DNA of 64,000 nucleotides from Candidatus Latescibacterota bacterium (GCA_965204725.1 OZ242005.1:3872001-3936000), one strand, 5' to 3'; numbered from the stretch's first letter, positions 8,531 to 33,442 are shown. Translations and numbers: made by a program. Notes: a model not told the origin generated them from the sequence alone.

Positions 8531-12364
<3,834 letters not shown>

Positions 12365-12373
12365 GAGGGACCC

Positions 12374-15300
12374 ATGGAAAAGCCGAGCCAGTACCCCCTG
12401 CCGCGCTTTTCGGTCAACCGGCCGGTGACCGTAGTAATGTCGCTAGTCGCATTGCTAGTGGTGGGCTACATCGCCTACACGCGGATCCCCCTGACCCTTT
12501 TTCCCGGAGGCTTTGACTATCCCCGCCTCTTCGCCTGGGCGCACTATCCCAACGCCGGAGCAGTCGAAGTGGAGGAGAAGGTCGTGCATCACCTCGAAGA
12601 GGCCGTCGCCCAAGTCAGCCGGATCAAGCGGATTCGCTCCAACGCCTACAGCGGCGGCGGCAATGTCCAAGTCGAGTTCCAAAAGGGCACCGACCTGCAA
12701 CTCGCTTTTGCCGAGATGAAGGACCGGCTCGACCGAGTCATGCCCGAGCTGCCCGACGAAATCGAGCAACTGTGGGTCCGGCGCTGGGATCAAAACGACA
12801 TTCCGATCATGGAGGGCGCGATCACCTTTGAGGCCCAATACGCCGACCCGCGCCAATTCATTGACGCCTACGTGGAGCCGGCGCTGCGCCGCGTCAATGG
12901 GGTCGGCAACATCGAGCTTTGGGGATCGCCGAGCAAGCAAGTGATCGTCGAGCTGGACCAAAGCAAGGTACACGGCCACCGGGTCAACGTGTTCGAGGTG
13001 CTCAACAGCTTGCGCGCCCAAAACCTCACCGTCCCCGGGGGCTGGGTGATTGAGGGCGGCAAGAAGATCTATGTGCGTTCGGTGGGCCGCTTTGAGAACG
13101 TCGAGGAGATCGCCAACACCGTGGTCGATCCCGAGTACCAGTTGCGGCTGGGCGACATCGCCGAGGTTTCCTATAAGCGGCCGCAGCAAGACTGGGTCAA
13201 CCGCATTGACCGCAAGGAGTCGCTGGCCTTCGGCGTCACCAAGGCATCCGGCGCCAATGTCGTCGAAGTTTCCAACGGGGTGAAGGAAGCACTGGAAGAG
13301 CTAAAAGACCATCCCAAGCTCGAAGGGTTGGACTTCAAGCTGTTCTGGAACCAAGGCGACCAAGTGACCAACTCGGTTGACAATCTCAAAAATTCCGGCC
13401 TGTGGGGTGGGCTGTTCGCGGCCTTGGTGCTCTTTTTCTTTTTACGCGCGGTGCGCATCACCCTGATCATCACCTTGGCGATCCCGCTGTCCATTCTAGC
13501 GACGATTACCGCCCTGTACTTCATAGGCTGGTCGTTGAACATGGCGACGATGATGGGCCTCATGCTGAGCTTGGGGCTGGTGGTTGACAACGCCATCGTC
13601 ATCGTCGAAAACATCTACCGCAAGCGCCAAGAAGGCATCGCCCCACGCCCGGCCTCAATTGAGGGCGCCGGCGAGGTAGGACTTGCGGTGACCATGGCGA
13701 CCCTGACGACCGTGGTGGTCTTCCTGCCCCTGATTCTGATGAGCGACGAGGAAATGTTTTCGTTCTGGATGCTCAGAATCGGCCTCCCGGTCATCGCGGG
13801 GCTGGTGGCCTCGCTGCTCATCGCCCTGATCTTCATCCCGCTTGCCGCGCTCAAGCTGGCGACGAGCAAGGAAAAAAGCGAGCCTCGGATGATCGCTTGG
13901 ACCCGCAAGCACTACGTGCGCTCGCTGGGCTGGGTGCTGAACAATCGCCTCGACGCCTTCGTCATCGCCTTGGTCCTGCTCGCCAGCATCCAGATCCCCA
14001 TGAATGGCATGGATCGCACCGACAGTCAGGAGCGCAACGAGGTGCGGATGGACTTGGCCTTTGAGATGCCTTCGGGCCAGTCGCTGGACCAAGCCGAGCA
14101 GTTTATGGCCGTCGTCGAGGATACGGTGATGGCCCACAGGGCCGAGTACAATGTCGAGATACTCCGCACGTATTTTCGCCGCGGCTGGGGGCGGGTGACG
14201 CTGTTTTTCGCCGAGGGAGAGGACGCGGAGTGGTATCAGGTGGCTTGGGACAATTTGAGCGTCGCGCTGGGCCTGAAGGAACGGGAACACCTCTCCTACA
14301 AGGAGGTCGAACAGGACCTCCGCGAGCGGCTCTACCTGCCGCCGGGCGTCACCTTGCGGGTCAACTGGGAAAACTCCGAACAAGATCCCCGAGTCAACGT
14401 CAGCCTGTATGGCGAGGATACCGAGGTGCTGATCGGACTAGCCGCCGAGGTCGAACGGCGGCTGGAGAGCATCCCCGGCTTGCTGTCGGTCAATACCGAC
14501 ATGGACCGCGGCGGCACCGAGCTACAAGTGCGCCTCAACCGCGACCAAGTGCAGCGCCTCGGCGTGGACCCCCAGATGGTTTCGGGCAGCATTGCCTACG
14601 CACTGCGCGGCACGAATATCAACAAGTTCCACACCGACGACGGCCGCGAAGTCGATATCCGCGTCCAGCTCGCCGAATACGGCAGCCACAGCTTAGACGA
14701 CCTACGCACTCAGCGCTTTCCCACCGCTGATGGCCGCGAAGTCCCCCTCGAATCGCTGGCGGACCTCTATGTCGAGCGCACCCTAGGCAATATCCGGCGC
14801 GAGAACCGGCAGACCATGCTCAATGTCAGTGCCCGCGCCTCTAAGGACCGGGCTCAACATCTCTTCGCCCAAGTCGATCAGGCGATGCAGGGCTTTGAGA
14901 TGCCGCGCGGCTACCGCTGGGACAAAGGCTCTCGCTTTGCGGAGCTATCGGAGCAGGACCAGTCGCGGAAATTCGCCCTTATCATGTCCGTGACCTTTGT
15001 CTTTTTGCTGATGGGGGTGCTCTTCGAGTCGTTCGTGCTGCCGCTGTCGGTGATCGTGTCCATCCCATTCTCCTTCCTCGGCGTTTACTGGATTCTATAT
15101 CTGACGGACACGCCCTTTGAAATCATGTCGATGATCGGCTCGGTAATCCTGATCGGCGTGGTGGTCAACAACGCCATCGTGCTGATCGATTTGGCCAACC
15201 GGCTCCGGGCCGAGGGCAAGTCGCGCTACGACGCGCTGCTGGAGGCCGGCCGCCACCGCTTCCGGCCCATCCTGATGACGACCTTCACCACCGCTTTCGG

Positions 15301-20175: not shown

Positions 20176-20867
20176 TGCCCCGCCCGCTCATCGGCATCAC
20201 CACCAGCCTAAACGCCGACGGCCAGCAAATCCTCGATCCCCAATATGTAGAAGCGGTCGTGCAGGCGGGCGGAGCTCCGCTCGTGCTGCCGATGACCACA
20301 GAACGCGCTGCGCTGCAAGCGGTCTTAGAGCGCATTGACGGTCTGCTGATCACCGGCGGCCCGGGCATTGAGCGCGGCCTGATCGGCACCCTGCCCAACG
20401 ATCTTCCGCCGGTCGCGGCCCAGCGCGACCGTGCCGACCGCTGGAGCTTTGCGGTCGCGCAAGCGCGCCGGTTGCCGGTTTTGGGCATCTGCTACGGAAT
20501 GCAGCTTATCAGCGCCGAGTTGGGCGGCACGATTTGGGCGGACGTGGAAGCCCAACTCGGCGTTGAGCCGCATGCGCGACAGCGAGTTACAGGCGACCGC
20601 ATTGAGCACGATCTCCAAGTTGAGCCGGGCACGGTGCTGGCCGCGCTGAGCCATGCTGGCCCTTCGCGGGTCAACTCCAATCACATACAGGCCATTGACC
20701 GGCCCGGCGCGGGCTTGCATATCAGCGGACGTAGCGGCGATGGCGTCGTGGAGGCGGTTGAGAGCGCGGACGAGCGCTTAATCGGCGTCCAGTTTCACCC
20801 GGAGCTCATGCTTGGGACGATCTGGTCTAAGCTATTCGATCACTTGGTGAGCCGAGCGGCGGGCTAG
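20175..20867 (+). CDS. Gamma-glutamyl-gamma-aminobutyrate hydrolase family (peptidase C26, PuuD-like)
   Basis: RPLIGIT, GLLITGG, LGICYGMQ nucleophile elbow, VNS.H.QA, GVQFHPE. Confidence 0.9.
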   Translation: MPRPLIGITTSLNADGQQILDPQYVEAVVQAGGAPLVLPMTTERAALQAVLERIDGLLITGGPGIERGLIGTLPNDLPPVAAQRDRADRWSFAVAQARRLPVLGICYGMQLISAELGGTIWADVEAQLGVEPHARQRVTGDRIEHDLQVEPGTVLAALSHAGPSRVNSNHIQAIDRPGAGLHISGRSGDGVVEAVESADERLIGVQFHPELMLGTIWSKLFDHLVSRAAG

Positions 20868-20880
20868 GGGTGCTGACTCA

Positions 20881-21858
20881 ATGAAGCAGATTGTGCGACA
20901 ATTGGATATTCTGCGGGAGTTGCAGGCGCGGCGTTACGGGGTGAGTGTTCGTGAACTGGTAGACGAGTACAACGTAGATAGGCGCACCATCCAGCGCGAT
21001 CTGCAAGACCTGCGCGAGATAGGGTTTCTGCTAAACGCAACACGGCGCACCGATCAGCGCATCTACTACCAGCTACAAAAGGACGCCGAACTGCCGCTGA
21101 ACTTCCCGATCATGGAAGTCGCGGCGATGATCTTTGCCGAGCGGTCGGGCATGGGGCTGGTGGGGACTCCGTTTGGCGAGCACCTGCGGTCGGCGATTCG
21201 CCGGCTGACTCAGGCCATGCCCTTGAAGATGCGGCAATTCCTAGAGCGAGCGGCCGAGGCTTATGTGCCGCTGGTGCGCGGGCACAAGCCTTACGAAGGT
21301 GCCCGCGAGATTCTCGAAAACCTACATGACGCCATCCTGCATCGCCGCGTGTGCTGGGTGCGCTACTCCTCGCCCTGGGCGGAGAGTGCCCGGCAGTACA
21401 ACATTGAACCGCTGCGTCTCCTGCCGCATCGGGGCGGTCTATACGTGATCTCGCGGGTGCCTTACTACGACCAGCTCATCACGCAGGCGGTGGATCGCTT
21501 TGAGGCGGTGGAAGTGACCGACAAGGAGTTTGAGCCGCCGGATCACCTGTCGGTTGACGAGCAAGTAAGCAATGCGTTTGGCGTCTCGTTTGAAGAGCCG
21601 ATGGACGTGGTGGTTCGGTTCACCGAGGAGCAGGCACCGTATATATGGGAGCGGGTCTGGCATCCGAGCCAAGCGATTGAAGAATTGGCGGACGGGCGGG
21701 TGGTGCTGCGGCTGCGGGCTGGGGGATTCTACGAGATCAAGAGTTGGGTGTTGAGCTTTGGCGCGGCGGCTGAGGTGCTAGAGCCGGAGGAATTGCGGGC
21801 GGCGGTGCAGGCGGAGATGCGGGCGGCGTTGGGGTTGTATGACGAGGGGGCGATGTGA
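20881..21858 (+). CDS. HTH-WYL-WCX transcriptional regulator (PafB/DriD/YafY-like)
   Basis: N-terminal wHTH RTIQRDL, WYL core (Y....R..EP..L......Y), C-terminal WHPSQ...DG...EIKSWVLSFG....VLEP.ELR. Confidence 0.93.
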   Translation: MKQIVRQLDILRELQARRYGVSVRELVDEYNVDRRTIQRDLQDLREIGFLLNATRRTDQRIYYQLQKDAELPLNFPIMEVAAMIFAERSGMGLVGTPFGEHLRSAIRRLTQAMPLKMRQFLERAAEAYVPLVRGHKPYEGAREILENLHDAILHRRVCWVRYSSPWAESARQYNIEPLRLLPHRGGLYVISRVPYYDQLITQAVDRFEAVEVTDKEFEPPDHLSVDEQVSNAFGVSFEEPMDVVVRFTEEQAPYIWERVWHPSQAIEELADGRVVLRLRAGGFYEIKSWVLSFGAAAEVLEPEELRAAVQAEMRAALGLYDEGAM

Positions 21859-22075
21859 TCTGACGAGATCCACGGACAAGGAGAGTTGTTCCTTAGAGAG
21901 TTCCTGTCAGACGTGCCATCCCTCGTAGGCGCGACATGCCACCCCACCAGAAGCCTTCGACGAACCGATCTCCTCTTCCCATCCCACCCCATCAACACCC
22001 GCCTCCCAAGACTCGTCTAAGCACCCTCCTGCGCCGATCTTGGAAAAATTGATTTCCTCGTAAAAAGTTTCCACC

Positions 22076-22109
22076 TGCGACGCGATCTGTCGCACCTCCT
22101 AGGTAAGTT
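22076..22109 (+). promoter_or_regulatory. Putative WYL-activator-dependent promoter: TGCGAC-N7-GTCGCA palindrome plus TGTCGC-N10-TA-N3-T
   Basis: Perfect 6-bp inverted repeat at 22076-22081/22089-22094; TGTCGC 22088-22093, 10 nt, then TAAGTT 22104-22109; AGGAGG RBS and ATG 22141 downstream; adjacent to WYL gene. Confidence 0.7.
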
Positions 22110-22140
22110 TCCTTTTCCCACAACCAAAAGGAGGTGTGCA

Positions 22141-22608
22141 ATGCGTATTCGCTTTTCTTTTTTCGTCGCTCTGTTGGCCTTCGGCCTTGTCGCCTGCGAA
22201 GGCCCGGCGGGACCGATGGGGCCGCAAGGGCCGCAAGGCGCAACCGGACCGCCTAGGGAAGGAATCGTCATCGAGCGGCAACTGTCCAATGCCCTCTACG
22301 ACGAGGACGGCACCATCTTCATCGAGGATGACCGGATAACCCCGACGACCTTCCAAGCCCTTTATCTCAAGTTCAAGGCAGCATTACCCGACCTCGGACC
22401 CGACGTAGTAGCATACATGCCGCTAGACTATCTCCTAGTGTCTGCGGTATCGTTCGCCCCCGAAGAGAGCGAGTTGGAGACGCCGGTCCTCGCCATCAGC
22501 GAGGGTATGCTCACGATCGTGGACCCTAATAGGATCCTCCTAGGTCTCGCAGTAGAATCTTTTTTTGACGGAGTAGATATCCATCTGGCGATTTTAGTGT
22601 CCCAGTAG
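22141..22608 (+). CDS. Lipoprotein with short collagen-like GPx repeat
   Basis: LVAC lipobox followed by EGPAGPMGPQGPQGATGP; strong RBS. Confidence 0.8.
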   Translation: MRIRFSFFVALLAFGLVACEGPAGPMGPQGPQGATGPPREGIVIERQLSNALYDEDGTIFIEDDRITPTTFQALYLKFKAALPDLGPDVVAYMPLDYLLVSAVSFAPEESELETPVLAISEGMLTIVDPNRILLGLAVESFFDGVDIHLAILVSQ

Positions 22609-22635
22609 GCACCATGTCATCTCGGAGAAAAAACC

Positions 22636-23518
22636 ATGCTCAACGCCTACGAACGCCAGCTTATTCTCTTTTACCTCTCCAACGCCGCCGCGCACTTCCA
22701 CCACTCCGTCCGAGGAAAGAGGGAGGAGCTAGCCGAGTGGGTCACCGAGAACCGCGACCTCCTCGCGCTCAGTGACGAGACTGAGGAGCCGGGCGAGCAC
22801 CAAGCGAGCAGCCTCTACGAAAAGGAGTTGTCCGCACGGGAATGGAATCATCTACGGAAGACCCTAGAAGAAGAGTACGCGGCAGCCTGCAAAGGTGGAC
22901 GGAAAGACCGCATAGCCCGACTGCTGCTGCGGCTTGGACAGGAGATGGACCTCGCACCGGAGGACATCGCGCTCATAGAGTTTTGGCTGCACTACGAAAC
23001 GCAGCCGATCTTTGGGTCGCTAGTCGAGTGTTTTGAAAGGGGCCGTCACTATCAGCGATTTTTTAACGTCACGCACCCTGTCCTACCCTGCATTCTCGGC
23101 ATACCGGCTAGCGCATTCCGCGCCCGCTTCACGGCCGATGCACCGCTCGTGAAGTCGGGGCTTGTGTCCGTCAATGACGACAGCGAATTCGAGATCATCA
23201 ATCGACTGCGCCGGCTGGTCTCCGTCCCAGACGACAGCGATCTCGACATGTGTAGCCTGTTGCTCGACGCGGCGACTCCGGGCGAACTGGAGTGGTCGGA
23301 CTTCGACCACGTGGCCGAAGCACGCGACCATATCGAAAAAATGATCAAGGGCGCATTATCCACCGGCAAACCGGGCGTAAACATCTTGGTGTACGGCCCG
23401 CCGGGAACCGGCAAGACCGAGTTTTGTAAGACGCTGGCCGCCCGGCTCGGAGCGAACCTCTATACGGTCGGCGAAGAGGACGAGCGATGCGACCCACGTG
23501 CGCAAGATGGGCTTTTGA
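22636..23518 (+). pseudogene. AAA+ ATPase with large internal deletion
   Basis: N-terminal domain and Walker A GPPGTGKTE, no Walker B; after VGEEDE the sequence switches frame into a terminal ...THVRKMGF* (stop 23516-23518); read-through frame ends at 23613. Confidence 0.75.
23503..23518 (+). repeat. Direct repeat CAAGATGGGCTTTTGA, copy 1 (AAA 3' tail)
   Basis: Exact 16-bp match to 25113-25128; 22/25 identity when extended upstream. Confidence 0.85.
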
Positions 23519-23609
23519 AAACCAAAACAGCGTTCCGGGCTTCCGTCCCTCACAAAACTTCCGCTCAACCCACAGGAGATCGGCAGCGTGTGGAGAACAC
23601 TCTAAAAAC

Positions 23610-24998
23610 ATGACCCAAAAACCTATTGATAATCAGCACCTAGAACGGATGCCACCACAGGCTATCGAGGTGGAGCAGGCCATATTGGGGGCGATGATGC
23701 TCGATCAGCACGCCATCGGCCATGCCCTCAAAATCCTTGCCCCAAGCTGCTTTTACAATGCCTCGCACCGCCGGATCTTCGAGGCCATGATCAGCCTCTA
23801 CGAACGCGACTTGGTCGTCGATCAGTTCACCTTGGCCGAAGAGCTCAAGCACCATGACCAACTTGATGACGTCGGTGGAACCTTCTATCTGGCCGAGCTA
23901 GCTGCCAAGGTCTCTACTTCCGCCAATATCGCTGTCCACGTACGGATCGTCCTAGAAAAGGCACTCAGCCGCCAGTTCATTGAGGTCGCCAGTGACATCA
24001 TTGAGCAAACCTACAAAGGCCACGACAGCGTACTAGAGCTAATCAACCGTGCCGAGCAACGCCTTTTTGCCATCAGCGAAAACTGGATTGGAGGTGGGAT
24101 TAGAGGTGGGATTGAGCCGTTGAAAACGATCATGGGCGACGCACTCAAACAGATTGAGCGTACCCACAGCAAGGCTAGGGCAGTCTCTGGGGTAAGTATG
24201 GGGTTTACCGCTCTCAACGAGAGTACCTCTGGTCTCCAGAAGGGCGAGCTGATCGTGCTGGCATCGCGACCGTTCGTGGGCAAGACAGCACTGGCATTGA
24301 CCTTGGCACGCAACGCAGCCGTGGATACCGGGGTCGGGGTAGTGATCTTCAGCCCGCAAATGTCCAAGATGCAGGTAGTCCAGCGCCTGCTCGGTATTGA
24401 GGCCAAGGTTGATTTGCACCATCTCCGCACTGGGCGACTCAGCGAACAAGCGAGGATGCACTTGACGCGCTATGCCGAGCGCCTAGCCCAAGCACCTATC
24501 TTCATCGACGACACGCCCGCCATCCCGATGCCCGAAGTACGGGCCAAGGCGCGTCGGCTGCACCGGGAACACGGGATCGGCCTGATCGTGGTGGACTATT
24601 TACAATTGATGTGTGGACAGGCCAAGACTTCGAGCCACGAGGAGGAAATCGCGCACATTTCGCGCAGGCTAAAGGAACTGGCCGAGGAGTTGGACCTGCC
24701 TGTGCTAGTGCTGGTGCAGCTAGCGTGCTCGGAGGAAGGCTTTACCAGTCCGAGACCTGAGCTATCGGATTTGCCAGCGTTGGGGATCGAGCAAGCTGCC
24801 GACATGGTGATGTTCATCTACCGCCCGGGCATGTACGGGTTCACGTCGCCATCTGGCGAGGGCTTTGAAAATTTTGTCGAGATCATCATCGGCAAGCAAC
24901 GTAACGGCCCTCTTGAATCGATCTCCCTAAAATGGAACAACGGGAGCGCAACCTACGAGTCGCTTATACCTGAGAGACGGATGGTCCCGGAAGAATAG
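23610..24998 (+). CDS. dnaB: DnaB-like replicative helicase paralogue with degenerate motifs
   Basis: PPQAIEVEQAILG N-domain, ASRPFVGKT Walker A, IVVDYLQL, KQRNGP; but FSPQMS, VQLAC, DLPALGIEQAAD. Confidence 0.88.
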   Translation: MTQKPIDNQHLERMPPQAIEVEQAILGAMMLDQHAIGHALKILAPSCFYNASHRRIFEAMISLYERDLVVDQFTLAEELKHHDQLDDVGGTFYLAELAAKVSTSANIAVHVRIVLEKALSRQFIEVASDIIEQTYKGHDSVLELINRAEQRLFAISENWIGGGIRGGIEPLKTIMGDALKQIERTHSKARAVSGVSMGFTALNESTSGLQKGELIVLASRPFVGKTALALTLARNAAVDTGVGVVIFSPQMSKMQVVQRLLGIEAKVDLHHLRTGRLSEQARMHLTRYAERLAQAPIFIDDTPAIPMPEVRAKARRLHREHGIGLIVVDYLQLMCGQAKTSSHEEEIAHISRRLKELAEELDLPVLVLVQLACSEEGFTSPRPELSDLPALGIEQAADMVMFIYRPGMYGFTSPSGEGFENFVEIIIGKQRNGPLESISLKWNNGSATYESLIPERRMVPEE

Positions 24999-25026
24999 AA
25001 TGCTAGCCAATCCTCTTGGTTTATTA

Positions 25027-25128
25027 GCCGAAATCCTCGGCCACCTATAGGACGCGAAGGCACTCGCCGAATTGCTGCGCGCCGAGTGCGAAGCTAAGCC
25101 AAACCACTCGCACAAGATGGGCTTTTGA
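25027..25128 (+). pseudogene. 3'-terminal stub of an AAA ATPase gene (contains repeat copy 2)
   Basis: Reads AEILGHL*DAKALAELLRAECEAKPNHSHKMGF*; ends with same 16 bp as 23503-23518. Confidence 0.65.
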
Positions 25129-25180
25129 TTAGGTTCTCGTTATTGACAAGTCGATTACCACTGAATAAGGGAGAACCGAC

Positions 25181-25474
25181 ATGCCTATGAAGAACCCACC
25201 ACATCCCGGCCAAGTCGTGCGCGTGTCCTGTCTGGAGCCGCTCGGCCTCAACGTCACGGAAGGCGCGAAAGTTCTCGGCGTCAGTCGCCAAGCCCTCTCG
25301 AATCTGGTGAATTGTCGTGCTCGCATGTCGGCCGACATGGCGATCCGCCTCGCGAAAGCCTTCGGCTCTACAACGGAGACTTGGATACGGTTACAAGCGG
25401 CCTACGACGTCGCTCAGGCGCAAGCGCGTGAGGACGAGATCGAGGTCGAGCGTTACGAGCCGCAACCCGTTTGA
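25181..25474 (+). CDS. higA: HigA-family addiction-module antitoxin
   Basis: MKNPPHPG, A..LGVSRQ.LS..VN......DMA.RL...FG.....W..LQ..YD. Confidence 0.93.
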   Translation: MPMKNPPHPGQVVRVSCLEPLGLNVTEGAKVLGVSRQALSNLVNCRARMSADMAIRLAKAFGSTTETWIRLQAAYDVAQAQAREDEIEVERYEPQPV

Positions 25475-25608
25475 GATAACAGACCGGTTCTTGAAGGAGC
25501 ATACTAGCCTTCTTGCTGTATGTTACTCGCGAAGGGTAGGCTTTCTGTGATACGGAGGAGTGATCAACTTACGTTACGTACCCTCCCGCTAAAGCGGGAA
25601 TCCAAGGA

Positions 25609-26568
25609 GTGATTAATATGCAGAAAGACCGAACCATCTCCCGCGCTCAGGGCTGCTTGTTGGGCCAGCTTGCCGGGGATTCGCTGGGCAGCCTAGTGGA
25701 ATTCCGTAGCCCCGAGGATATTCAGAGCAAGTATCCCGCTGGAGTCCGTGATCTCGCGGACGGCGGGGTCTGGAACACGATTGCCGGGCAGCCGACGGAC
25801 GATTCCGAAATGGCACTCGCCCTAGCCCGAATGCTGGCGAAGCACAATAGATACGACCGAACGCTTGCCTTCACGGCCTATACTCGCTGGTTGGACTCTG
25901 GCCCGTTCGACTGCGGCCACGCCGTCAGAAGCGGTCTTAAGGGAAACGCGATTGGAACCAGCCAAGCGAACGGGGCCATGATGCGGATCAGCCCGCTGGG
26001 CATCTTCGGCGCGAACTACGAATTAGATCAGGTGGCAGAATGGGCGCGCGAGGACGCAGCACTCACGCATCCCCATCCGGTCTGCCAGCAAGCCAACGCG
26101 CTCTACGCCTTGGCCATCGCCTCCGCGGTCCGCGCCGAATGCGAACCGCAGGACCTATACGAGCGGATTCAGATGTGGGCGAGGGACATCCCAACGGAAC
26201 CATCGCTCATGTCGGCCATTGACGGCGCGGCCACAGCACCGCCTGCGGAATATATGCACCAGCAGGGCTGGGTTCTGACGGCGTTCCGCAACGCGCTATG
26301 GCAACTGCTCCACGCCGAGAATCTCGAGGAAGCGGTCGCAGATACCGTCCAGCGAGGCGGAGACACCGACACCAACGCGGCCATCTGCGGAGCGCTGCTA
26401 GGCGCGGTGCATGGCCGAGAATCCGTCCCCGAACGGTGGGTGGACCGAATTTTGAACTGCCGACCCAAGAAAGGGGCTCCCAATGTCCTTCAACCTCGCC
26501 CAGAGTGCTACTGGCCGGTAGATGCGCTAGTGCTTGCTGAGCGTTTGATTCGCCCGCCCGTCGCATGA
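25609..26568 (+). CDS. ADP-ribosylglycohydrolase family protein
   Basis: GCLLG...GDSLG, GQPTDDSEM, NGAMMR..P, TH, GGDTDTNAAI.GAL.GA. Confidence 0.93.
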   Translation: MINMQKDRTISRAQGCLLGQLAGDSLGSLVEFRSPEDIQSKYPAGVRDLADGGVWNTIAGQPTDDSEMALALARMLAKHNRYDRTLAFTAYTRWLDSGPFDCGHAVRSGLKGNAIGTSQANGAMMRISPLGIFGANYELDQVAEWAREDAALTHPHPVCQQANALYALAIASAVRAECEPQDLYERIQMWARDIPTEPSLMSAIDGAATAPPAEYMHQQGWVLTAFRNALWQLLHAENLEEAVADTVQRGGDTDTNAAICGALLGAVHGRESVPERWVDRILNCRPKKGAPNVLQPRPECYWPVDALVLAERLIRPPVA

Positions 26569-26618
26569 CGACCACCCCTAATCTGTGCGGGTTCGCAACA
26601 AAGGAACTCGCACACTAA
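26565..26618 (+). pseudogene. 5' stub of a paralogue of the following nuclease gene (MTTTPNLCGFATKELAH*)
   Basis: CCTAATCTGT.CGG.TTCGCAACAAAGGAACTCGCACA duplicated at the start of the gene at 26636. Confidence 0.75.
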
Positions 26619-26635
26619 ACAAGGAGCACAGCAAA

Positions 26636-27688
26636 ATGACACTGCCTAATCTGTACGGATTCGCAACAAAGGAACTCGCACAGGATGCTACCATTTCATA
26701 TCTCTTGGCGTGGGCCGACCCGGCATACCGCGAATCACATCCGCACCTTCACACCCTTGGCACCGAATTATTGCGTTCACTCCTTCAGACGCAAGAAGTG
26801 GTTCTTCCACCGATCGAAACACTTTGTATTAAGACCCAAGTTGACCGGATTGACATTGTCGTGAAGATCAACGCCGGCGAGAATGGAGTCCTTCTGATCA
26901 TCGAAGACAAGGTGAACACCCAAGAGAGGCGGAACCAAATTAAAGAGTATAAAGAGACCGCCGAGGAGAAGTACCGAGGCCAGTATGATCGTTTAGTTGC
27001 GGTATATTTCAAGACGGGAAACGAATCGAAAGCCAGCCTTCCAAATAAAAAAGAATGCGGCCGCTTTATGCGCCGCGACCTGCTAGACGTCCTGAACAAA
27101 TTTCAGGACACGGGAAATACCATCGTGGACGACTTTCGCACCCATCTTCAAAACCGGGAAGACGATACAAACAGGTGGGAATCCGCGAGTTACGACGAGT
27201 GGAAGGGGGGACAACGGGAGTGCGAGGGCTTCTATGCCGAGCTAGAACACAGGTGGGACGGTTGTTGTGGGTGGGGTTATATTGCAAATCCGGCTGGAGG
27301 ATTCCTTGGCTGGTGGTCGAAATACTGGCCTATCGGAACCAAGGATCGGTACACTCTATATATACAGATCCACAATGCACAGCGTTTGACCGTCCGGCTT
27401 GGATCCGGTAAGGCCATGGACAAAGTTCGTGCCCCGTTCATGTACCAAGTTCTCGATGCCTTGAACGAAGAGGCTTTTGACGACATCCACATCGAAAAGG
27501 CGGGGACGTTCAGGGGCGGCGGTGCTGCAGCGGTTGCAGACGTCACGTTTGATGAACAAGGCCCTTGGTTTGCCGTTGACCCCAACGGCGTCGTGAATAT
27601 GGACGCCACGATCGAACGGCTGCGTCGCTTGGAGGAATTGCTGGAAAAAGTTGCGACGCGCTTAACCGAACAGGGGATCGTCAGTTAG
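26636..27688 (+). CDS. PD-(D/E)XK nuclease superfamily protein
   Basis: ATKEL.QDA, RIDIVV...LIIEDK.......Q...Y; WGY..NP.GGF.G; ATG 26636 with AAGGAG RBS. Confidence 0.8.
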   Translation: MTLPNLYGFATKELAQDATISYLLAWADPAYRESHPHLHTLGTELLRSLLQTQEVVLPPIETLCIKTQVDRIDIVVKINAGENGVLLIIEDKVNTQERRNQIKEYKETAEEKYRGQYDRLVAVYFKTGNESKASLPNKKECGRFMRRDLLDVLNKFQDTGNTIVDDFRTHLQNREDDTNRWESASYDEWKGGQRECEGFYAELEHRWDGCCGWGYIANPAGGFLGWWSKYWPIGTKDRYTLYIQIHNAQRLTVRLGSGKAMDKVRAPFMYQVLDALNEEAFDDIHIEKAGTFRGGGAAAVADVTFDEQGPWFAVDPNGVVNMDATIERLRRLEELLEKVATRLTEQGIVS

Positions 27689-27712
27689 TTGCGCGAGCCT
27701 TCGCGATAATGA

Positions 27713-28039
27713 TTATGCCCGCAGCAAACGCCGCTGTAGCAAGGTCTGCATGTCGCGTCGTCCATCGGCGATCAAGAGCACATAGACGTCATTTCCCATC
27801 ACCCGATAAATGATGCGATAGGGCCTAAAAAATATCTCTCGGTATTCCCGAACCCCGATGTCCAGCAATTCCGTCGGATAGCTCCCGCGCTCTGGATACT
27901 CGGATAGGCTGCTGAACGCCTTCTCAATCTGCTTCAGCACATAATCCGCCCGGCCCGGCCCATCATGCCGGTCGATGTAATCGCAGATCGTCTCCAAATC
28001 ATACGTAGCGTCGTCGATCAACTGAACCAAGAACGCCAT
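27713..28039 (-). CDS. RelE/ParE-family toxin
   Basis: A..DL..I.DYI, L...PERG, YREI...PYRIIYR, DGRRD. Confidence 0.92.
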   Translation of the reverse strand: MAFLVQLIDDATYDLETICDYIDRHDGPGRADYVLKQIEKAFSSLSEYPERGSYPTELLDIGVREYREIFFRPYRIIYRVMGNDVYVLLIADGRRDMQTLLQRRLLRA

Positions 28040-28314
28040 CAGCGACCCTGGTGCCGCTCCCGCAGCCGTGCGACGACCTTGGCGGCCGGTTGCACCTGAC
28101 CTGCTTCGATCTGGCGGCTACCCAGCGCGAGTATCTTGAGCAACGCAACCGTTTCCTGCATCTGCTCGTAGCTGTCGATGTCCTGCATGACCGCCTTGGC
28201 TTCGCCGTTCTGGGTGATGACCAAGGGTTCTGGTTGGTCGCTAAGTGTGCGTACGATCTCAGCGGCGTGGGCCTTGAGATAACTGATCGGCTTGATCTGG
28301 CTGGACAGTTTCAT
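28039..28314 (-). CDS. Phd/YefM-family antitoxin
   Basis: IKPISYLK, PLVITQNGEAKAV; overlaps toxin start. Confidence 0.92.
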   Translation of the reverse strand: MKLSSQIKPISYLKAHAAEIVRTLSDQPEPLVITQNGEAKAVMQDIDSYEQMQETVALLKILALGSRQIEAGQVQPAAKVVARLRERHQGR

Positions 28315-28376
28315 GAGCACCTCCGTTTTGGACCAAATATAGACCGAAAACAGGTCAAGAGCAATGTCTGGCTAGT

Positions 28377-28457
28377 GCTTGATTATCTCATCTCAGCTTG
28401 AGATGTGCGGGCCTTCTTACTGTAATTTTGAACCGCTACTTCAAATTTACACGCTAA
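28377..28457 (+). repeat. Direct repeat copy 1 (about 70-80 bp) with CATCTCA/TGAGATG hairpin and TTTGAA-N7-TTCAAA palindrome
   Basis: Near-identical to 30080-30150, with its tail matching 30174-30191. Confidence 0.9.
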
Positions 28458-28542
28458 CTTTACATTCGTTTTTCTCTATTTCCTCTTGATCATTAGCCAA
28501 GATCAAACATATTGTCTCTATATGAAATTAAATGGAGTCAAT

Positions 28543-29148
28543 ATGTCTGGATCAAAGAAAAAACGTCCCGAAGAAATCTTCCGCAGGTACGGCGGCCAAC
28601 TTCGAATGAGCGAGGCCATCGCGCACGGGATTACACGCTACATGCTATATGCCCTCAAGGACAGGGGCGTCATCGAGCCAGTCAGCAGAGGCATCTATCG
28701 GCTGCGGGAACTGCCTCCGCTCGGCAACCCTGATTTGGTCGCGGTGAGCCTTCGCTTCCCCAACGCCATCGTTTGCCTCGTCTCTGCGTTAGCCTACCAT
28801 GGCATCACGACTCAGATTCCCCATGAGATTTCCGTGGCAGTGCCAAGAGACTCGCGGGTGCCGGCACTCAACTATCCGCCCATCCGAGCCCACAGATGCT
28901 CGCAGGCAGCATACGAATCCGGCATTGAAACACATCTGATGGATGGCGTACCCGTCAAAATCTACAGCCGCGAGAAAACCCTAGCCGACTGCTTTAAGTT
29001 TCGCAACAAAATTGGTATGGATGTAGTGCTGGAAGCGTTGAAACTCCACCAGACGCGAAACGGGTTCAACCTCGGCGAACTGCTCAAATACGCCAGCATC
29101 TGTCGAGTGGAAAAGGTGATGCGGCCCTATTTGGAGGCACTGGTATGA
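28543..29148 (+). CDS. abiEi: AbiEi type IV TA antitoxin / transcriptional regulator
   Basis: wHTH ..RGIY, CL.SAL..HG.T.QIP, IYS.EKT..DCFK.RNKIG. Confidence 0.88.
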   Translation: MSGSKKKRPEEIFRRYGGQLRMSEAIAHGITRYMLYALKDRGVIEPVSRGIYRLRELPPLGNPDLVAVSLRFPNAIVCLVSALAYHGITTQIPHEISVAVPRDSRVPALNYPPIRAHRCSQAAYESGIETHLMDGVPVKIYSREKTLADCFKFRNKIGMDVVLEALKLHQTRNGFNLGELLKYASICRVEKVMRPYLEALV

Positions 29149-30047
29149 CGTCTCCCCGCAATGTGTCCGCGTCCGTCCGACAACGCCTCCTCAATCGGTC
29201 CAGAAGTGAGCGAAGGCCATTCAACGAGCTGCTTCAATACTTCGCCATGGAGCGATTCCTCTACCGACTATCCCAATCCGCTCATGCCCATCGATTTGTG
29301 CTCAAGGGCGCGTTGATGCTGAGGGTTTGGGGCTCACCGGAATTCCGTCCGACCATGGACATCGACTTACTTGGCAGGACTCGCAACGCGGAAGCCGACA
29401 TCGTCTCTCAGATGCGGGACATCCTGATGGTCAATGTGGAAACAGACGGACTTGCGTTCGACCCAGATTCTATTCAGACCGAGCGGATCACCGAAGGTGC
29501 GGATTACGACGGGATCAGGATTCGGTTCCTAGGCACACTGGGATCCGCGATAATCCACATACAGATTGACATTGGCTTCGGCGATGTCGTGTATCCCGAT
29601 CCAAAAGAATCGGATTTTCCGACCATATTGAACTTCTCGGCACCGCGATTGTTCTGCTACAGCCGCGAGAGCTCCATCTCAGAGAAGTTTGAAGCCATGG
29701 TCAAGCTAGGTATGCTAAACAGCCGGATGAAGGATTTCTACGACATCTGGTTGATGTCTCGGCGGTTCGACTTTGAGGGTCTCAAGCTGACCCAAGCCAT
29801 TCAGCGGACCTTTGAGCGGCGAAACACGGTGCTGCCCGCGAAAATCGAAGCATTCTCTCAGCCTTTCATCGATGCCAAGCAGAGCCAGTGGGCAGCGTTC
29901 CGCAATAGGCTCCGGCAGGATCACCTGCCCACCTCGTTCGGGGAAATCACGGCTTCGGCGTGCGAATTTCTGTGGCCCGTTGTCGCGGCTCTTTCCTCTG
30001 GGAAATCCAGTCCGACAGACTGGATCGCACCCGGGCCATGGACCTGA
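29145..30047 (+). CDS. abiEii: AbiEii nucleotidyltransferase toxin
   Basis: SVRQRL, ERFLYRL, LKG, RPT.DID, DIGFGD, EK, NSRMKDFYD; ATGA overlap with abiEi. Confidence 0.92.
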   Translation: MTSPRNVSASVRQRLLNRSRSERRPFNELLQYFAMERFLYRLSQSAHAHRFVLKGALMLRVWGSPEFRPTMDIDLLGRTRNAEADIVSQMRDILMVNVETDGLAFDPDSIQTERITEGADYDGIRIRFLGTLGSAIIHIQIDIGFGDVVYPDPKESDFPTILNFSAPRLFCYSRESSISEKFEAMVKLGMLNSRMKDFYDIWLMSRRFDFEGLKLTQAIQRTFERRNTVLPAKIEAFSQPFIDAKQSQWAAFRNRLRQDHLPTSFGEITASACEFLWPVVAALSSGKSSPTDWIAPGPWT

Positions 30048-30079
30048 GCCGGTATCCTTCCATTAAAATGAAGAAGCCG

Positions 30080-30191
30080 GCTTGATTATCTCATCTCAGT
30101 TTGAGATGTGCGGGCCTTCTTGCTGTAATTTTGAACCGCTACTTCAAATTATCATGTAATTTTGAATAGCTATTTCAAATTTACACGTTAA
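30080..30191 (+). repeat. Direct repeat copy 2, with two tandem TTTGAA-N7-TTCAAA palindromes
   Basis: TGTAATTTTGAAccgctacTTCAAATT then TGTAATTTTGAAtagctatTTCAAATTTACA, just before ATG 30202. Confidence 0.9.
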
Positions 30192-30201
30192 TTTTAAGTC
30201 C

Positions 30202-31356
30202 ATGTATAAACGAAATCTGGACCTCCCCGCGTCCGGCACCGAGACGTTTTTCCTCTGGGGGCCGCGACAGGCGGGCAAAAGCACCCTGCTAAAACACCAG
30301 TACGCCGATGGCCTGTGGCTCGATCTCCTAAAGGCCGACGAATTCAGGCGGTACGTCGCCAACCCGGAGTTTTTGCGTCAAGAAATTGAGGCGACCGGGT
30401 TCGATCCCAGCCGCCAGATCGTCATTGACGAGATTCAGAAAGTACCGGCACTGCTTGACGAGGTGCATTGGCTGCTCGAAAACCGAGGGTTGAGCTTCGC
30501 CCTTTGCGGCTCCAGTGCTCGCAAGGTGCGGCGCGGCGGGGCCAACCTGCTCGGCGGGCGAGCCGTGCGCTACCAACTGCACGGGCTGACGGCGCGAGAA
30601 CTCGGCGCAGACTTTGACCTCACCCGCCTCCTCAACCACGGCTACCTGCCCCGGATGTACGCCAACGCTCGTCCCGCCCGGTTGCTCGACGCTTACGTCG
30701 CCGACTATCTCAAGGAGGAAGTCGCGGCCGAAGGACTAGTCCGCAACTTGCCCGCGTTTGCCGGGTTTTTGAACGCGGCCGCTCTAGGCGATACCGAAAT
30801 GGTCAACTTCTCCAATATCGCGCGGGAGTGTGGCGTCTCCAGTCACACGGCGAGAGGCTATTACGAGATTCTCGAAGACGCGCTGCTCGGGCGCTGGTTG
30901 CCCGCCTTCCGCAAGCGTCCCAAGCGGCGAGTGGTTGCCGCGTCTAAGTTTTACTTTGCGGATGTTGGAGTGGTCAACCGACTCGCCCGCCGGGGGCAAC
31001 TGCTGGTGGGATCGGAGCTATACGGCAAGGCATTTGAGAACTGGGTATTCCACGAACTGGCCGCGTTTGCCGACTATCAAGCGTTCGAGGGCGAACTAAC
31101 GTATTGGCGTCTAGCCGGCGGGACCGAGGTTGATTTTATCTTGGGCGACATGCAACTCGCGGTCGAGGCCAAGGCGAGCAACCACATCGTCAGCAACCAC
31201 TTGAAAGGGCTGCGTAGCCTAGCAAAGGATCATCCGGGCGTCGGCCGGCGGGTTGTCGCATGCCTTGAACCCCGCGCCCGGCGCACTGACGACGGGATCG
31301 ACATCCTGCCCGCGACCACCTTCGTCCAAATGCTCTGGTGCGGCGACCTCGCCTAA
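30202..31356 (+). CDS. AAA_14/DUF4143 ATP-binding protein
   Basis: GPRQAGKST, IDEIQK, CGSS, GRA, KFYF.D.G, FE, EVDF...EAK nuclease-like tail. Confidence 0.92.
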   Translation: MYKRNLDLPASGTETFFLWGPRQAGKSTLLKHQYADGLWLDLLKADEFRRYVANPEFLRQEIEATGFDPSRQIVIDEIQKVPALLDEVHWLLENRGLSFALCGSSARKVRRGGANLLGGRAVRYQLHGLTARELGADFDLTRLLNHGYLPRMYANARPARLLDAYVADYLKEEVAAEGLVRNLPAFAGFLNAAALGDTEMVNFSNIARECGVSSHTARGYYEILEDALLGRWLPAFRKRPKRRVVAASKFYFADVGVVNRLARRGQLLVGSELYGKAFENWVFHELAAFADYQAFEGELTYWRLAGGTEVDFILGDMQLAVEAKASNHIVSNHLKGLRSLAKDHPGVGRRVVACLEPRARRTDDGIDILPATTFVQMLWCGDLA

Positions 31357-32033
31357 GCTAGCCGCTTCCACACATCCGCTTGCTGGCTCTCCACTTGCAC
31401 GAGCCGCGCTTCTTCAAGCACATAACCGCTGAGTTGGCCGCCGTAGATGCAGCCCGAGTCAAGGCCGAGGAGATAGGGGCGGCCAGCGCGTTTTTTGAGC
31501 ACCAAGCCGCCGGGCGCGTCGTGGCCAAAGACGAGCAAGGGATGCACCGGCTCGTAGAAATCGTGCCAACGCGGGCGGGCGAGATCGCTGGAGGGCGGCC
31601 AAGTGCGGATCTTCAGGAATTCGGCGCGGCGGGTGCCTTGTAAGCCCTTTTTCGGGTGGATGCCAGCGTGGACCAAGAGAAAGGCGTCTTCTGCGATGTA
31701 GAGCGGGCACTGCCGAAGCCAAGCGAGAATTTCGCGGTGGACGGGCTGGAGCTGGGCGCGGGTATAGCCTTGATCGGAAAACTTCTCTTTGGGCTTGCGG
31801 CCCTTGGCCAGCGCGGTTAGCTGCTTCAAGAGGCGGGCGTCGTGATTGCCCAACACCATCTCGGCCCCGGTGTCGCGGATCAACTGCCACACCGCTAGCG
31901 GGTCGGGGCCGCGGGAAAAAGCATCGCCGGTCAGCAACAGGCGATCCCGGGCCGCGTCGTAGTCTGCTTTTGCGAGGAGGGCTGCAAACTCGGCGGCGCA
32001 GCCGTGGACATCGCCGACGAAAATAGTACGCAT
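31353..32033 (-). CDS. Calcineurin-like metallophosphoesterase (ApaH-like)
   Basis: GDVHG, GD..SRGP, GNHD, VHAG, FGH, LDSGCIYGG.L. Confidence 0.92.
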   Translation of the reverse strand: MRTIFVGDVHGCAAEFAALLAKADYDAARDRLLLTGDAFSRGPDPLAVWQLIRDTGAEMVLGNHDARLLKQLTALAKGRKPKEKFSDQGYTRAQLQPVHREILAWLRQCPLYIAEDAFLLVHAGIHPKKGLQGTRRAEFLKIRTWPPSSDLARPRWHDFYEPVHPLLVFGHDAPGGLVLKKRAGRPYLLGLDSGCIYGGQLSGYVLEEARLVQVESQQADVWKRLA

Positions 32034-32101
32034 TAGATTTTCCTAGATTGCATTGCGGAAGGGCAAACGCTATCATACTCACCACTTCAAGATAGGCCCT
32101 G

Positions 32102-33442
32102 ATGGAAACTGCGACCACACTCACCCCGGCTCCGGCGTCTTGCCACGTGATGGCCAAGCCCTCGGGCTCGGTCTGCAACATCGACTGCAAGTACTGCTTC
32201 TATCTGGAGAAGGAAAAGCTCTACCCGGACGCGAGCAAAAATTGGCGCATGTCCGACGAGACGCTCGAACTCTACGTCAAGCAGTACATCGAGGCCCAAG
32301 ACGTGCCGCAGATAGATTTTGCTTGGCAGGGCGGCGAGCCGACCCTGATGGGCGTAGATTTTTTCCGCCGCGCAGTCCAGCTACAGCAGCAGTACGCCAA
32401 CGGCAAGTTGGTCACCAACGCCTTCCAGACCAACGGCATCCTCCTCAACGACGAGTGGGGCGAGTTCCTCGCCGAAAACAAATTCCTAGTCGGGCTGTCG
32501 ATTGACGGGCCGCGCCAGTACCACGACCGCTACCGGGTTGACAAGGGCCAGAAGCCGACCTACGACCGAGTGCAGGCCGGTTTGCAAACGCTCAAAAAGC
32601 ACGCGGTGGAATTCAATACCCTGACCGTGCTGCAAAACCACAACGCCGATCATCCGCTCGAAATCTATCGCTTCCTGCGCCAAGCGGGCTCGGGGTTTAT
32701 GCAGTTTATTCCCATCGTCGAGCGCGTCGCGCACGAGCCAGACGAAGACGGGTTGGAATTAGTCGATCCCGAATACGAGGGCCGGGCGCCGGTTTCCAAG
32801 TGGTCGGTGGGGCCGGGGCAGTACGGCAAGTTCCTCTGCGCGATCTTTGACGAGTGGGTGCGTAACGACGTCGGCCAAGTCTTTGTCCAGCTCTTTGACG
32901 TGACCCTCGGCTCGTGGCTGGGCCAAGATGCGAGCCTGTGCATCTTTGCCGAGACCTGCGGCAAGGCTCTGATCATTGAGCACAACGGCGACCTGTACTC
33001 TTGCGACCACTTCGTGTACTCGGATTATCGGCTGGGCAACGTCCACGACGAGAGCATCCGCGACATGGTCGCTAGCCCGCAGCAAACCAAGTTCGGGCAG
33101 GACAAAAAGGACGCGCTGCCCCAGTACTGCATCGAATGCGATTTTCGGTTTGCCTGCAATGGCGGCTGCCCCAAGCACCGCTTTACCAAAACCCCACGCG
33201 GCGAAGGGGGTCTCAACTATCTGTGCAAAGGGTACAAGATGTACTTCGGGCACGTTGACCCCTACATGCGCTTTATGGCCAACGAATTGCGGCACGGCCG
33301 GCCGGCCACCGGCGTGATGGAATGGGCGAGAAAAAGGGACGCGGTCAAGTCGGCCCTGCACCAAAAGACCCCTAGGCGCAACGACCCGTGCTCCTGCGGC
33401 AGCGGCAAGAAGTACAAGCGCTGCTGTGGCCGGGCCGCATAA
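32102..33442 (+). CDS. Anaerobic sulfatase maturase (radical SAM/SPASM, C-terminal SEC-C)
   Basis: CNIDCKYC, WQGGEP, QTNG, YSCDHFV, CNGGCPK, RNDPCSCGSGKKYKRCC. Confidence 0.95.
   Translation: METATTLTPAPASCHVMAKPSGSVCNIDCKYCFYLEKEKLYPDASKNWRMSDETLELYVKQYIEAQDVPQIDFAWQGGEPTLMGVDFFRRAVQLQQQYANGKLVTNAFQTNGILLNDEWGEFLAENKFLVGLSIDGPRQYHDRYRVDKGQKPTYDRVQAGLQTLKKHAVEFNTLTVLQNHNADHPLEIYRFLRQAGSGFMQFIPIVERVAHEPDEDGLELVDPEYEGRAPVSKWSVGPGQYGKFLCAIFDEWVRNDVGQVFVQLFDVTLGSWLGQDASLCIFAETCGKALIIEHNGDLYSCDHFVYSDYRLGNVHDESIRDMVASPQQTKFGQDKKDALPQYCIECDFRFACNGGCPKHRFTKTPRGEGGLNYLCKGYKMYFGHVDPYMRFMANELRHGRPATGVMEWARKRDAVKSALHQKTPRRNDPCSCGSGKKYKRCCGRAA

Follow-up and report, generated by a model that had tools for sequence, protein, structure and literature searches.

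A stretch of 64,000 nucleotides (nt) from Candidatus Latescibacterota bacterium (GCA_965204725.1 OZ242005.1:3872001-3936000; hereafter the window) carries, between positions 20,881 and 31,356, a gene for an HTH-WYL-WCX protein, a short palindrome of the form TGCGAC-N7-GTCGCA and a series of defence-type genes. The question raised by this locus is whether the palindrome, here called the WYL box, is a promoter element read by the WYL protein, and if so which genes it governs and in which direction. An earlier note on this DNA had placed the palindrome at 22076-22094, a second motif sharing its right arm (TGTCGC-N10-TA-N3-T) at 22088-22109 and a ribosome-binding site (RBS) beyond them, with an intact HTH-WYL-WCX gene on the 5' side. 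The positions and the RBS are exact on direct reading, and the gene is confirmed by Pfam. We lean towards the view that the box serves an activator of the DriD/PafBC type and takes the place of the -35 element in one or more promoters of the cassettes that make up a hypervariable island. Support from sequence comparison extends to the box with its geometry, to its association with the WYL gene and to the arrangement of the island in cassettes, as described below.

The WYL box and its promoter geometry

The regulator gene is intact, is the only WYL-domain gene in the 5.43-Mb genome and starts 13 nt past an upstream Peptidase_C26 gene. Its product of 325 amino acids (aa) has the domain order winged helix-turn-helix (wHTH)-WYL-WCX, with Pfam matches to HTH_11 (2.4e-11, residues 6-56), WYL (8.7e-12, residues 143-212) and WCX (5.1e-23, residues 239-317). 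All five of its PDB matches at E <= 0.001 are chains of DriD (E 1.3e-14 to 7.4e-14), and the full-length DriD chains align with residues 5-316. Sequence similarity to PafBC is weak (E 0.004), and no BrxR or CapW chain is among the PDB sequence matches even at E <= 10.

The box lies 218 nt 3' of the WYL gene end (21858) and is made up of TGCGAC (22076-22081), the spacer GCGATCT (22082-22088) and GTCGCA (22089-22094). TGTCGC at 22088-22093 is followed after 10 nt by TA (22104-22105) and then by T at 22109, which are part of the hexamer that we assign as the -10. Transcription is predicted to start near 22116, ahead of an RBS (GGAGG, 22130-22134) and an ATG at 22141. Within the window by itself the palindrome is not significant, as there is one match and 20 of 100 shuffled sequences gave at least one match at no more than one mismatch; it is significant, however, in the context of the genome and of related genomes. 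The exact palindrome occurs three times in the 5.43-Mb genome (the window site, C1:152582 and C1:4948463), and the three copies have in common a block of ~55 nt composed of the A-rich tract, CC, the box with an identical asymmetric spacer, CCyCy and TAGrTAArTT, while their flanks are unrelated to one another. When scored with a weight matrix made from 45 sites of relatives only, with this genome left out, the three sites reach 60.3, 57.0 and 47.7 bits and the next-best position in the genome 10.0.

Among 76 genomes of the family, the box together with its -10 was matched 51 times in 25 genomes at no more than two mismatches, compared with 9 matches for a reversed control. WYL orthologues of at least 69% identity are present in 24 of the 76 genomes (three of them as fragments or with stops), and the pattern is found in 21 of these 24 as against 4 of the 52 genomes that lack an orthologue. 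In two orthologue-bearing genomes (G089 and G090) the palindrome is there with a diverged -10, and the 24th (G052) was left out of the locus inspection. The four matching genomes without an orthologue comprise two with perfect boxes (G068 and G070, in which absence of the orthologue was judged at E <= 1e-20) and two with chance-like matches at two mismatches. In the 27 loci inspected, all 46 oriented boxes lie at or past the end of the WYL gene and on its strand, with none in the 3-kb upstream flanks. The motif is thus conserved beside orthologous WYL genes, which is the check that the earlier note had proposed.

The first box lies across the stop codon of the WYL gene in 18 loci (...GCG ACG TGA TCTGTCGCA). 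These stop-codon boxes retain the -10 spacing and have no A-tract, because coding sequence occupies that stretch. The window holds a decayed copy of such a box (Table 1) in which 5 of the 12 arm positions are altered and the spacer is retained, and by this comparison the intact box at 22076 is that of the next cassette and not the one belonging to the stop-codon position. In G023 and G088, boxes still precede a module of a lipoprotein and an ATPase gene (described below) though the WYL gene is 450-800 kb off, a sign that the regulon works in trans. Right after the gene, WYL paralogues of 44-49% identity in two other families of the class have a variant box with the layout A-tract, CGAC-N7-GTCATA, 9 nt, TATCTT, followed by an ATPase homologue of 41-45% identity. 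Because these distant paralogues adjoin both the variant box and the ATPase homologue, we regard the regulator-ATPase pair as the old core of the system.

Promoter geometry was compared over 53 oriented sites taken from the window, two other loci of the same genome and 20 loci of relatives, which are kin and not independent of one another. The box arms are invariant or near-invariant, and the spacer has the consensus R-Y-G-A-T-C-T with a near-invariant GATCT; the four positions of its GATC (22084-22087 in the window) are kept in 53, 53, 51 and 53 of the 53 sites. TAnnnT stands exactly 9 nt past GTCGCA in 42 of the 53 sites and in no more than 1 of 53 at each of the other offsets from 0 to 11, in support of the promoter reading that the earlier note had put forward. 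The PafBC-type layout TGTCGC-N10-TA-N3-T is accordingly present at 22088-22109 of the window and in 42 of the 53 sites. The hexamers found 16-18 nt 5' of the -10 lie in the box itself (CGCGAT and its neighbours) and are unlike TTGACA. An open reading frame (ORF) of at least 100 aa begins 20-150 nt downstream at 28 of the 53 sites, compared with 9 of 56 in the reverse orientation, and beyond the conserved block the sequence varies freely among sites.

Two further arrangements were seen around boxes of relatives. Some boxes of the lipoprotein class have an extra TGCGAC half-site 10 nt on their 5' side (CCTGCGACATGCTGCGAC...; L047 5763-5791 and 14527-14555, L060 8102-8130), which may be a third half-site for cooperative binding. 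At ~3950-4040 of loci L088-L090, a perfect hairpin with a T-run (GAGACGCATTC...GAATGCGTCTC TTTTT) lies at the predicted transcript start after the variant box. The hairpin might terminate or attenuate the target transcript near its 5' end, or else end transcription of the regulator gene.

Comparison with known WYL regulators and the direction of control

The best solved relative of the regulator, DriD, is a wHTH-3HB-WYL-WCX activator of an SOS-independent damage response in Caulobacter crescentus and has the same domain order. PMC13004042 describes DriD promoters that have no -35; the site, ATACGAC(X)7GTCGTAT, overlaps where that element would lie and keeps a set spacing to the -10. The promoters printed there can be read, by us and not by their authors, as a right half-site GTCGCA or GGCGCA, 9 nt, and CAATCT or CAAGGT. 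The Latescibacterota box has the core CGAC-N7-GTCG in common with DriD, its right half-site, GTCGCA, stands unchanged in the printed driD-region promoter, and it likewise lies where a -35 would be, with constant spacing to the -10 and no -35, the -10 being assigned here by sequence. As TGCGAC-N7-GTCGCA matches the DriD-type target CGXC-N7-GXCG, binding by the regulator would be expected. According to PMC10853764, DriD reads its CGAC half-site via Arg37 and Arg41, with Glu40 contacting C1. The two arginines align with R35 and R39 of the regulator and Glu40 aligns with Q38 (RRTAER versus RRTIQR); the guanine-reading pair is thus conserved, and RTIQR is also kept in the WYL paralogues of 44-49% identity.

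The two systems also differ. DriD homologues have the motif in their own promoter, whereas the box here follows or overlaps the regulator's stop codon. The regulon here consists of a local cassette island and two orphan sites, compared with scattered repair genes for DriD; Glu40 is replaced by Gln, and the host belongs to a different, uncultured phylum. The spacer here is G+C-rich with its GATCT whereas that of DriD is A+T-rich. DriD makes few contacts at the centre of its box, and methylation or polymerase contacts might account for the GATC.

PafBC acts in mycobacteria by sigma adaptation at RecA-NDp promoters, for which PMC8635444 gives the consensus tGTCgg(N10)tA(N3)T, no -35 and a GTC triplet read by two arginines. 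The geometry is identical to that described here, and the -26 element of PafBC corresponds to the promoter-proximal half-site of the box. PafBC is, however, described as a heterodimer of two WYL proteins with a non-palindromic motif, in contrast to the one WYL gene and perfect palindrome of this genome. The DriD and PafBC motifs as quoted in the earlier note are both found in print in these papers. Its proposal that the site merges the two layouts does not hold, since half-site, 9 nt and -10-like hexamer are already the layout of DriD itself in the promoters printed in PMC13004042 and nothing is merged.

A further likeness is to DdaA of Moraxellaceae, a published WYL activator that turns on damage-response and anti-phage genes under DNA damage. 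DdaA is described as having replaced SOS with a genome-wide network, whereas here LexA and two recA genes coexist with a three-site regulon. The two full-length recA matches lie at C1:5150212-5150982 and C1:3568402-3569178 (E 1e-132 and 4e-130), and there is no box near these genes or the LexA gene. Because LexA and both recA genes exist without a nearby box, we regard the regulator as local and not as an SOS substitute. A role as global damage regulator was ruled out, there being only three genomic sites, none near lexA or recA genes.

The architecture of the regulator is also that of BrxR (PMC9122601) and CapW, established wHTH-WYL-WCX repressors beside BREX, CBASS and other defence islands, and the gene studied here likewise adjoins a variable island of toxin-antitoxin, Abi and nuclease genes. 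The WYL protein could therefore bind the box as a BrxR/CapW-like repressor, with the A-tract and the -10 forming an UP-element promoter that is blocked by the dimer and freed by a ligand. The A-rich tract before most intergenic boxes and the defence-type cargo of the island would suit such control, which we nonetheless consider unlikely. According to PMC9122601, BrxR represses through long inverted repeats (11-bp repeats with a 5-bp spacer) located downstream of the -10 in the regulator's own promoter. The Latescibacterota box has arms of 6 bp and a spacer of 7 bp, and it stands 5' of the -10 at a fixed 9 nt, only 3' of the regulator gene and never 5' of it. Moreover, stop-codon boxes keep the -10 spacing without any A-tract, and the sequence search with the regulator detects only the activators DriD and PafBC.

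The identity of the factor that reads the box has to be weighed as well. HTH_3 genes occur in several islands and the perfect boxes of G068 and G070 have no WYL orthologue at the threshold given above, which would fit a box read by an HTH_3 protein or an alternative sigma factor and co-travelling with the WYL gene as common island content. Such a factor is quite improbable given that DriD's mode of recognition, as solved, is matched both by the CGAC-N7-GTCG core and by the conserved arginine pair, that the box sits on the WYL stop codon in 18 loci and that a perfect palindrome points to a dimeric factor and not a sigma factor. In addition, the lipoprotein gene that follows the box of G068 is frameshifted, apparently through decay once the WYL gene had been lost. 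On these sequence grounds we judge the box very likely to be the operator of this WYL protein. Alternatively, the box could have no promoter role and be either a short dispersed repeat or the hairpin that terminates the WYL gene. The 6-bp stem and 7-nt loop directly past the WYL gene and the ~65-nt direct repeats around one orphan copy speak for this, but it is highly improbable: a T-run is missing after the stem, conservation extends to the loop sequence and to the -10 at +9, neither of which a hairpin needs, there are only three genomic copies, and genes begin 30-110 nt downstream in conserved orientation.

In the mechanism that we propose, the single HTH-WYL-WCX protein would act as a DriD-type homodimer whose wHTH domains bind TGCGAC-RYGATCT-GTCGCA. 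The box would stand in for the -35, always 9 nt 5' of a TAnnnT -10, and because it occupies the -35 position the box promoters could not fire well unaided. The ligand-bound regulator would recruit or adapt RNA polymerase in the manner of DriD and PafBC and so turn the promoters on; that control is by activation rather than repression we consider likely. By analogy with its relatives the ligand may be single-stranded DNA (ssDNA), for which the case is about evenly balanced, and a role in defence seems to us to have roughly an even chance. With each cassette in relatives carrying its own promoter copy, one sensor would co-induce a varying effector set. In the window the box at 22076 would drive the lipoprotein gene, and read-through from its promoter could extend over 22141-27688, that is to the broken ATPase, second dnaB, higA, ADP-ribosylglycohydrolase and PD-(D/E)XK nuclease genes.

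Several points limit this mechanism or weigh against it. At the 11 DriD residues that contact ssDNA or are needed for ssDNA-dependent activation (Y168, S172, R176, R178, R189, Y192, R204, W206, R207, Y240 and R288), the regulator is identical at 4 (Y, R, R and Y) and has A, Y, I, Q, A, S and Y at the others, the positions having been mapped by hand on a low-identity phmmer alignment. No box lies upstream of the regulator gene in the 3-kb flanks of the 27 loci, whereas PMC10853764 reports the motif in their own promoters for 68 DriD homologues. The near-invariant GATCT spacer is not explained by the DriD contact pattern. The A-rich tract 5' of most boxes could be an UP element that activates the promoters unaided, which would fit a repressor, and the absence of a -35 was judged by the sigma-70 consensus, which may not match Latescibacterota housekeeping promoters. 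Since the related genomes are kin, the counts overstate the independent support. Finally, the ATPase that is the core target is destroyed in this genome and no gene is evident behind the boxes at C1:152582 and C1:4948463, so that the system is perhaps in decay.

What these data describe is a DriD/PafBC-type promoter system, borne on cassettes, in a new uncultured phylum, a well-supported example of a principle already known. It extends the promoter architecture of DriD (Alphaproteobacteria) and PafBC (Actinobacteria) to an uncultured phylum of the FCB group, and the base-for-base identity of geometry suggests a general rule for finding WYL-activator regulons by sequence alone. The regulon is small and testable, with one regulator and one 34-nt promoter module. 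Uncharacterised genes (a double AAA+ ATPase with a lipoprotein, DnaB helicases, an ADP-ribosylglycohydrolase and nucleases) are marked as co-induced and therefore as probably cooperating, and the cargo may represent a new module by which sponge symbionts defend themselves or respond to damage. A more far-reaching idea, about which we are doubtful, is that the islands are cassette arrays in which every module brings a portable copy of the activator-dependent promoter, forming a shuffled arsenal fired by one nucleic-acid sensor. Their core of collagen-like lipoprotein, WHD-AAA-AAA ATPase, ADP-ribosylglycohydrolase and PD-(D/E)XK nuclease, often with a second DnaB, would then be an inducible anti-phage or abortive system not yet described, which might couple envelope and DNA. 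If this were true, the rule of half-site, 9 nt, -10 and no -35 would hold for all WYL activators in three phyla or more.

Cassettes of the island in relatives and in the window

The island is hypervariable and lies, in this genus, between DUF5069/Peptidase_C26 and Metallophos/radical-SAM genes. We examined its content in eight relatives with a Pfam scan of 150 of 155 ORFs, five short ORFs being left out. The islands of the relatives consist of cassettes, each led by its own box. The cassette directly 3' of the WYL gene encodes an unknown protein of ~190 aa with a PDDEXK_4 nuclease, or else an unknown protein of 329 aa or 231 aa. Other cassettes carry a 207-aa protein, DnaB, an outer-membrane beta-barrel protein with DnaB, or a collagen-like lipoprotein with the 693-aa ATPase and then an ADP-ribosylglycohydrolase with a PDDEXK_4 or REase-ARP nuclease. 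The ATPase is also present in 20 of the 24 genomes with a WYL orthologue. Interspersed in the islands, and without a box, are ParE/Phd, HigBA, AbiE and MazF pairs and an AAA_14-DUF4143 gene. A mobile element or phage satellite was considered and rejected, as Pfam scans of the window and of the eight relatives' islands gave neither an integrase nor a structural gene. The constancy of the island site (Peptidase_C26 to Metallophos) in several species agrees better with a variable hotspot.

Table 1. Features of the regulator gene, the box and the downstream island, in window coordinates
Feature	Position	Strand	Basis or remark
HTH_11-WYL-WCX regulator gene, 325 aa	20881..21858	+	Pfam: WCX 5e-23, WYL 9e-12, HTH_11 2e-11
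Decayed copy of stop-codon box (GGCGATGTGATCTGACGAG)	21849..21867	+	Compared with stop-codon boxes of 18 loci
A-rich tract TAAAAAG 5' of box	22061..22067	+	Sequence; also at most intergenic boxes
WYL box TGCGAC-GCGATCT-GTCGCA at usual -35 position	22076..22094	+	Read directly; scans of genome and relatives
Predicted -10 hexamer TAAGTT, 9 nt past box	22104..22109	+	By sequence; TAnnnT at +9 in 42/53 sites
Lipoprotein gene, collagen-like Gly-Pro-X repeats, 155 aa; conserved C-terminal domain	22141..22608	+	Orthologues directly after boxes in 9 further loci
Remnant of 693-aa WHD-AAA-AAA ATPase gene	22636..23613	+	Homology to ~residue 286 (~nt 23493), frame then lost
Stray ATPase C-terminal tail (last codons and stop)	23503..23518	+	16-mer identical to intact ATPase gene ends in relatives
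Second DnaB-family helicase gene, intact (DnaB and DnaB_C)	23610..24998	+	Passes TIGR00665; 318/449 identical to relative
Second ATPase C-terminal remnant, residues 661-693	25027..25128	+	Comparison with relatives
HigA-family antitoxin gene, no HigB partner	25181..25474	+	TIGR02607, 99.7 bits (cut-off 47.7)
ADP-ribosylglycohydrolase gene (ADP_ribosyl_GH)	25609..26568	+	Pfam 3e-62; after ATPase gene in relatives
PD-(D/E)XK nuclease gene (PDDEXK_4; PADLOC candidate PDC-S26)	26585..27688	+	Pfam, PADLOC
ParE toxin and Phd/YefM antitoxin genes, no box, outside regulon	27713..28320	-	Pfam
AbiEi/AbiEii pair, no box	28486..30047	+	Pfam, PADLOC
AAA_14-DUF4143 gene (PADLOC candidate PDC-S01), no box	30202..31356	+	Pfam, PADLOC

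In the window the island retains one intact box; the cassette that follows the WYL gene in relatives has been lost, the ATPase gene is destroyed, and higA has no higB, which adjoins the higA orthologue in the relative locus L048. The lipoprotein gene has a conserved first place behind boxes of this class. The N-terminus of its product (MRIRFSFFVALLAFGLVAC) is a signal peptide with a lipobox cysteine, followed by the Gly-Pro-X repeats. The lipoprotein has no Pfam match, its AlphaFold model (10 orthologues, predicted local distance difference test score 70.3) has no PDB match at E <= 0.001 by Foldseek, and against the ESM Atlas only unnamed clusters were reached, at 0.82 or below.

The ATPase remnant is identical to a relative at 228 of 312 positions and diverges thereafter, and no intact copy of the 693-aa protein is encoded in the genome. 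The 16-mer made up of the last codons and stop of the ATPase gene occurs twice (23503-23518 and 25113-25128) and brackets the DnaB cassette, which suggests that repeated ATPase copies recombined and so gave rise to the rearrangement. The dnaB gene between them is a second copy, as the main dnaB sits at another genomic position. This second copy lacks a box and keeps only the downstream part of its former box-promoter leader (CTCAACCCACAGGAG, 23565-23579).

The identities that the earlier note assigned to the downstream genes stand by Pfam, NCBIfam and PADLOC, apart from its AAA ATPase, which is a broken remnant of the 693-aa protein. It had also not recognised the gene combination as a named system, and this agrees with a PADLOC 2.0 run in which AbiEi with AbiEii, a pair without a box, is the only complete named pair and the box-driven genes match only the candidate family PDC-S26 or a partial IetA-like AAA. 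The toxin-antitoxin, AbiE and DUF4143 genes, which it had counted with the array, have to be taken out of it. ParE/Phd, AbiE and DUF4143 have no box and lie on a strand or in units of their own, so that 27688 is the furthest point to which a box-dependent array can reach. The AAA_14-DUF4143 gene is the last island gene before the conserved Metallophos/radical-SAM flank. All of 22141-27688 is on one strand with no predicted terminator. A scan of 20500-32500 gave neither a sigma-70-like promoter nor a terminator on the plus strand from the WYL gene to 28396, a result that agrees with read-through but is weak evidence.

Orphan boxes and other features of the genome

The two boxes outside the window lie in dissimilar surroundings. 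That at C1:4948463 (L002 11964-11982, minus strand; also in L062, L065 and L066) is followed by ~150 nt conserved in four genomes, which contain a G+C-rich hairpin and indels that are not multiples of three. Because of these indels a coding reading of the segment is unsupported. RNAalifold on the four sequences predicted 31 pairs, none with a compensatory change, so that a structured RNA is likewise unsupported, and Rfam gave nothing at gathering thresholds for the two orphan-site loci. In one genome a 526-aa ORF begins 279 nt past the orphan box. Small RNA, leader and gene remnant are all conceivable identities for the segment.

The box at C1:152582 (L001 2001-2019) lies between two minus-strand genes and is flanked by direct repeats of ~65 nt (L001 1707-1772 and 2050-2112, spacing ~343 nt). 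The locus resembles a small inserted or duplicated element carrying a promoter.

Near-identical DNA is found in sponge and marine metagenome runs, none of the 23 listed runs being RNA. On the minus strand of L002, at 12232-13992, a 586-aa ORF is composed of repeats of the type ...GKIYWTD...IQRANLDGSN..., which resembles a YWTD beta-propeller protein of the eukaryotic kind and which would presumably fit a sponge symbiont.

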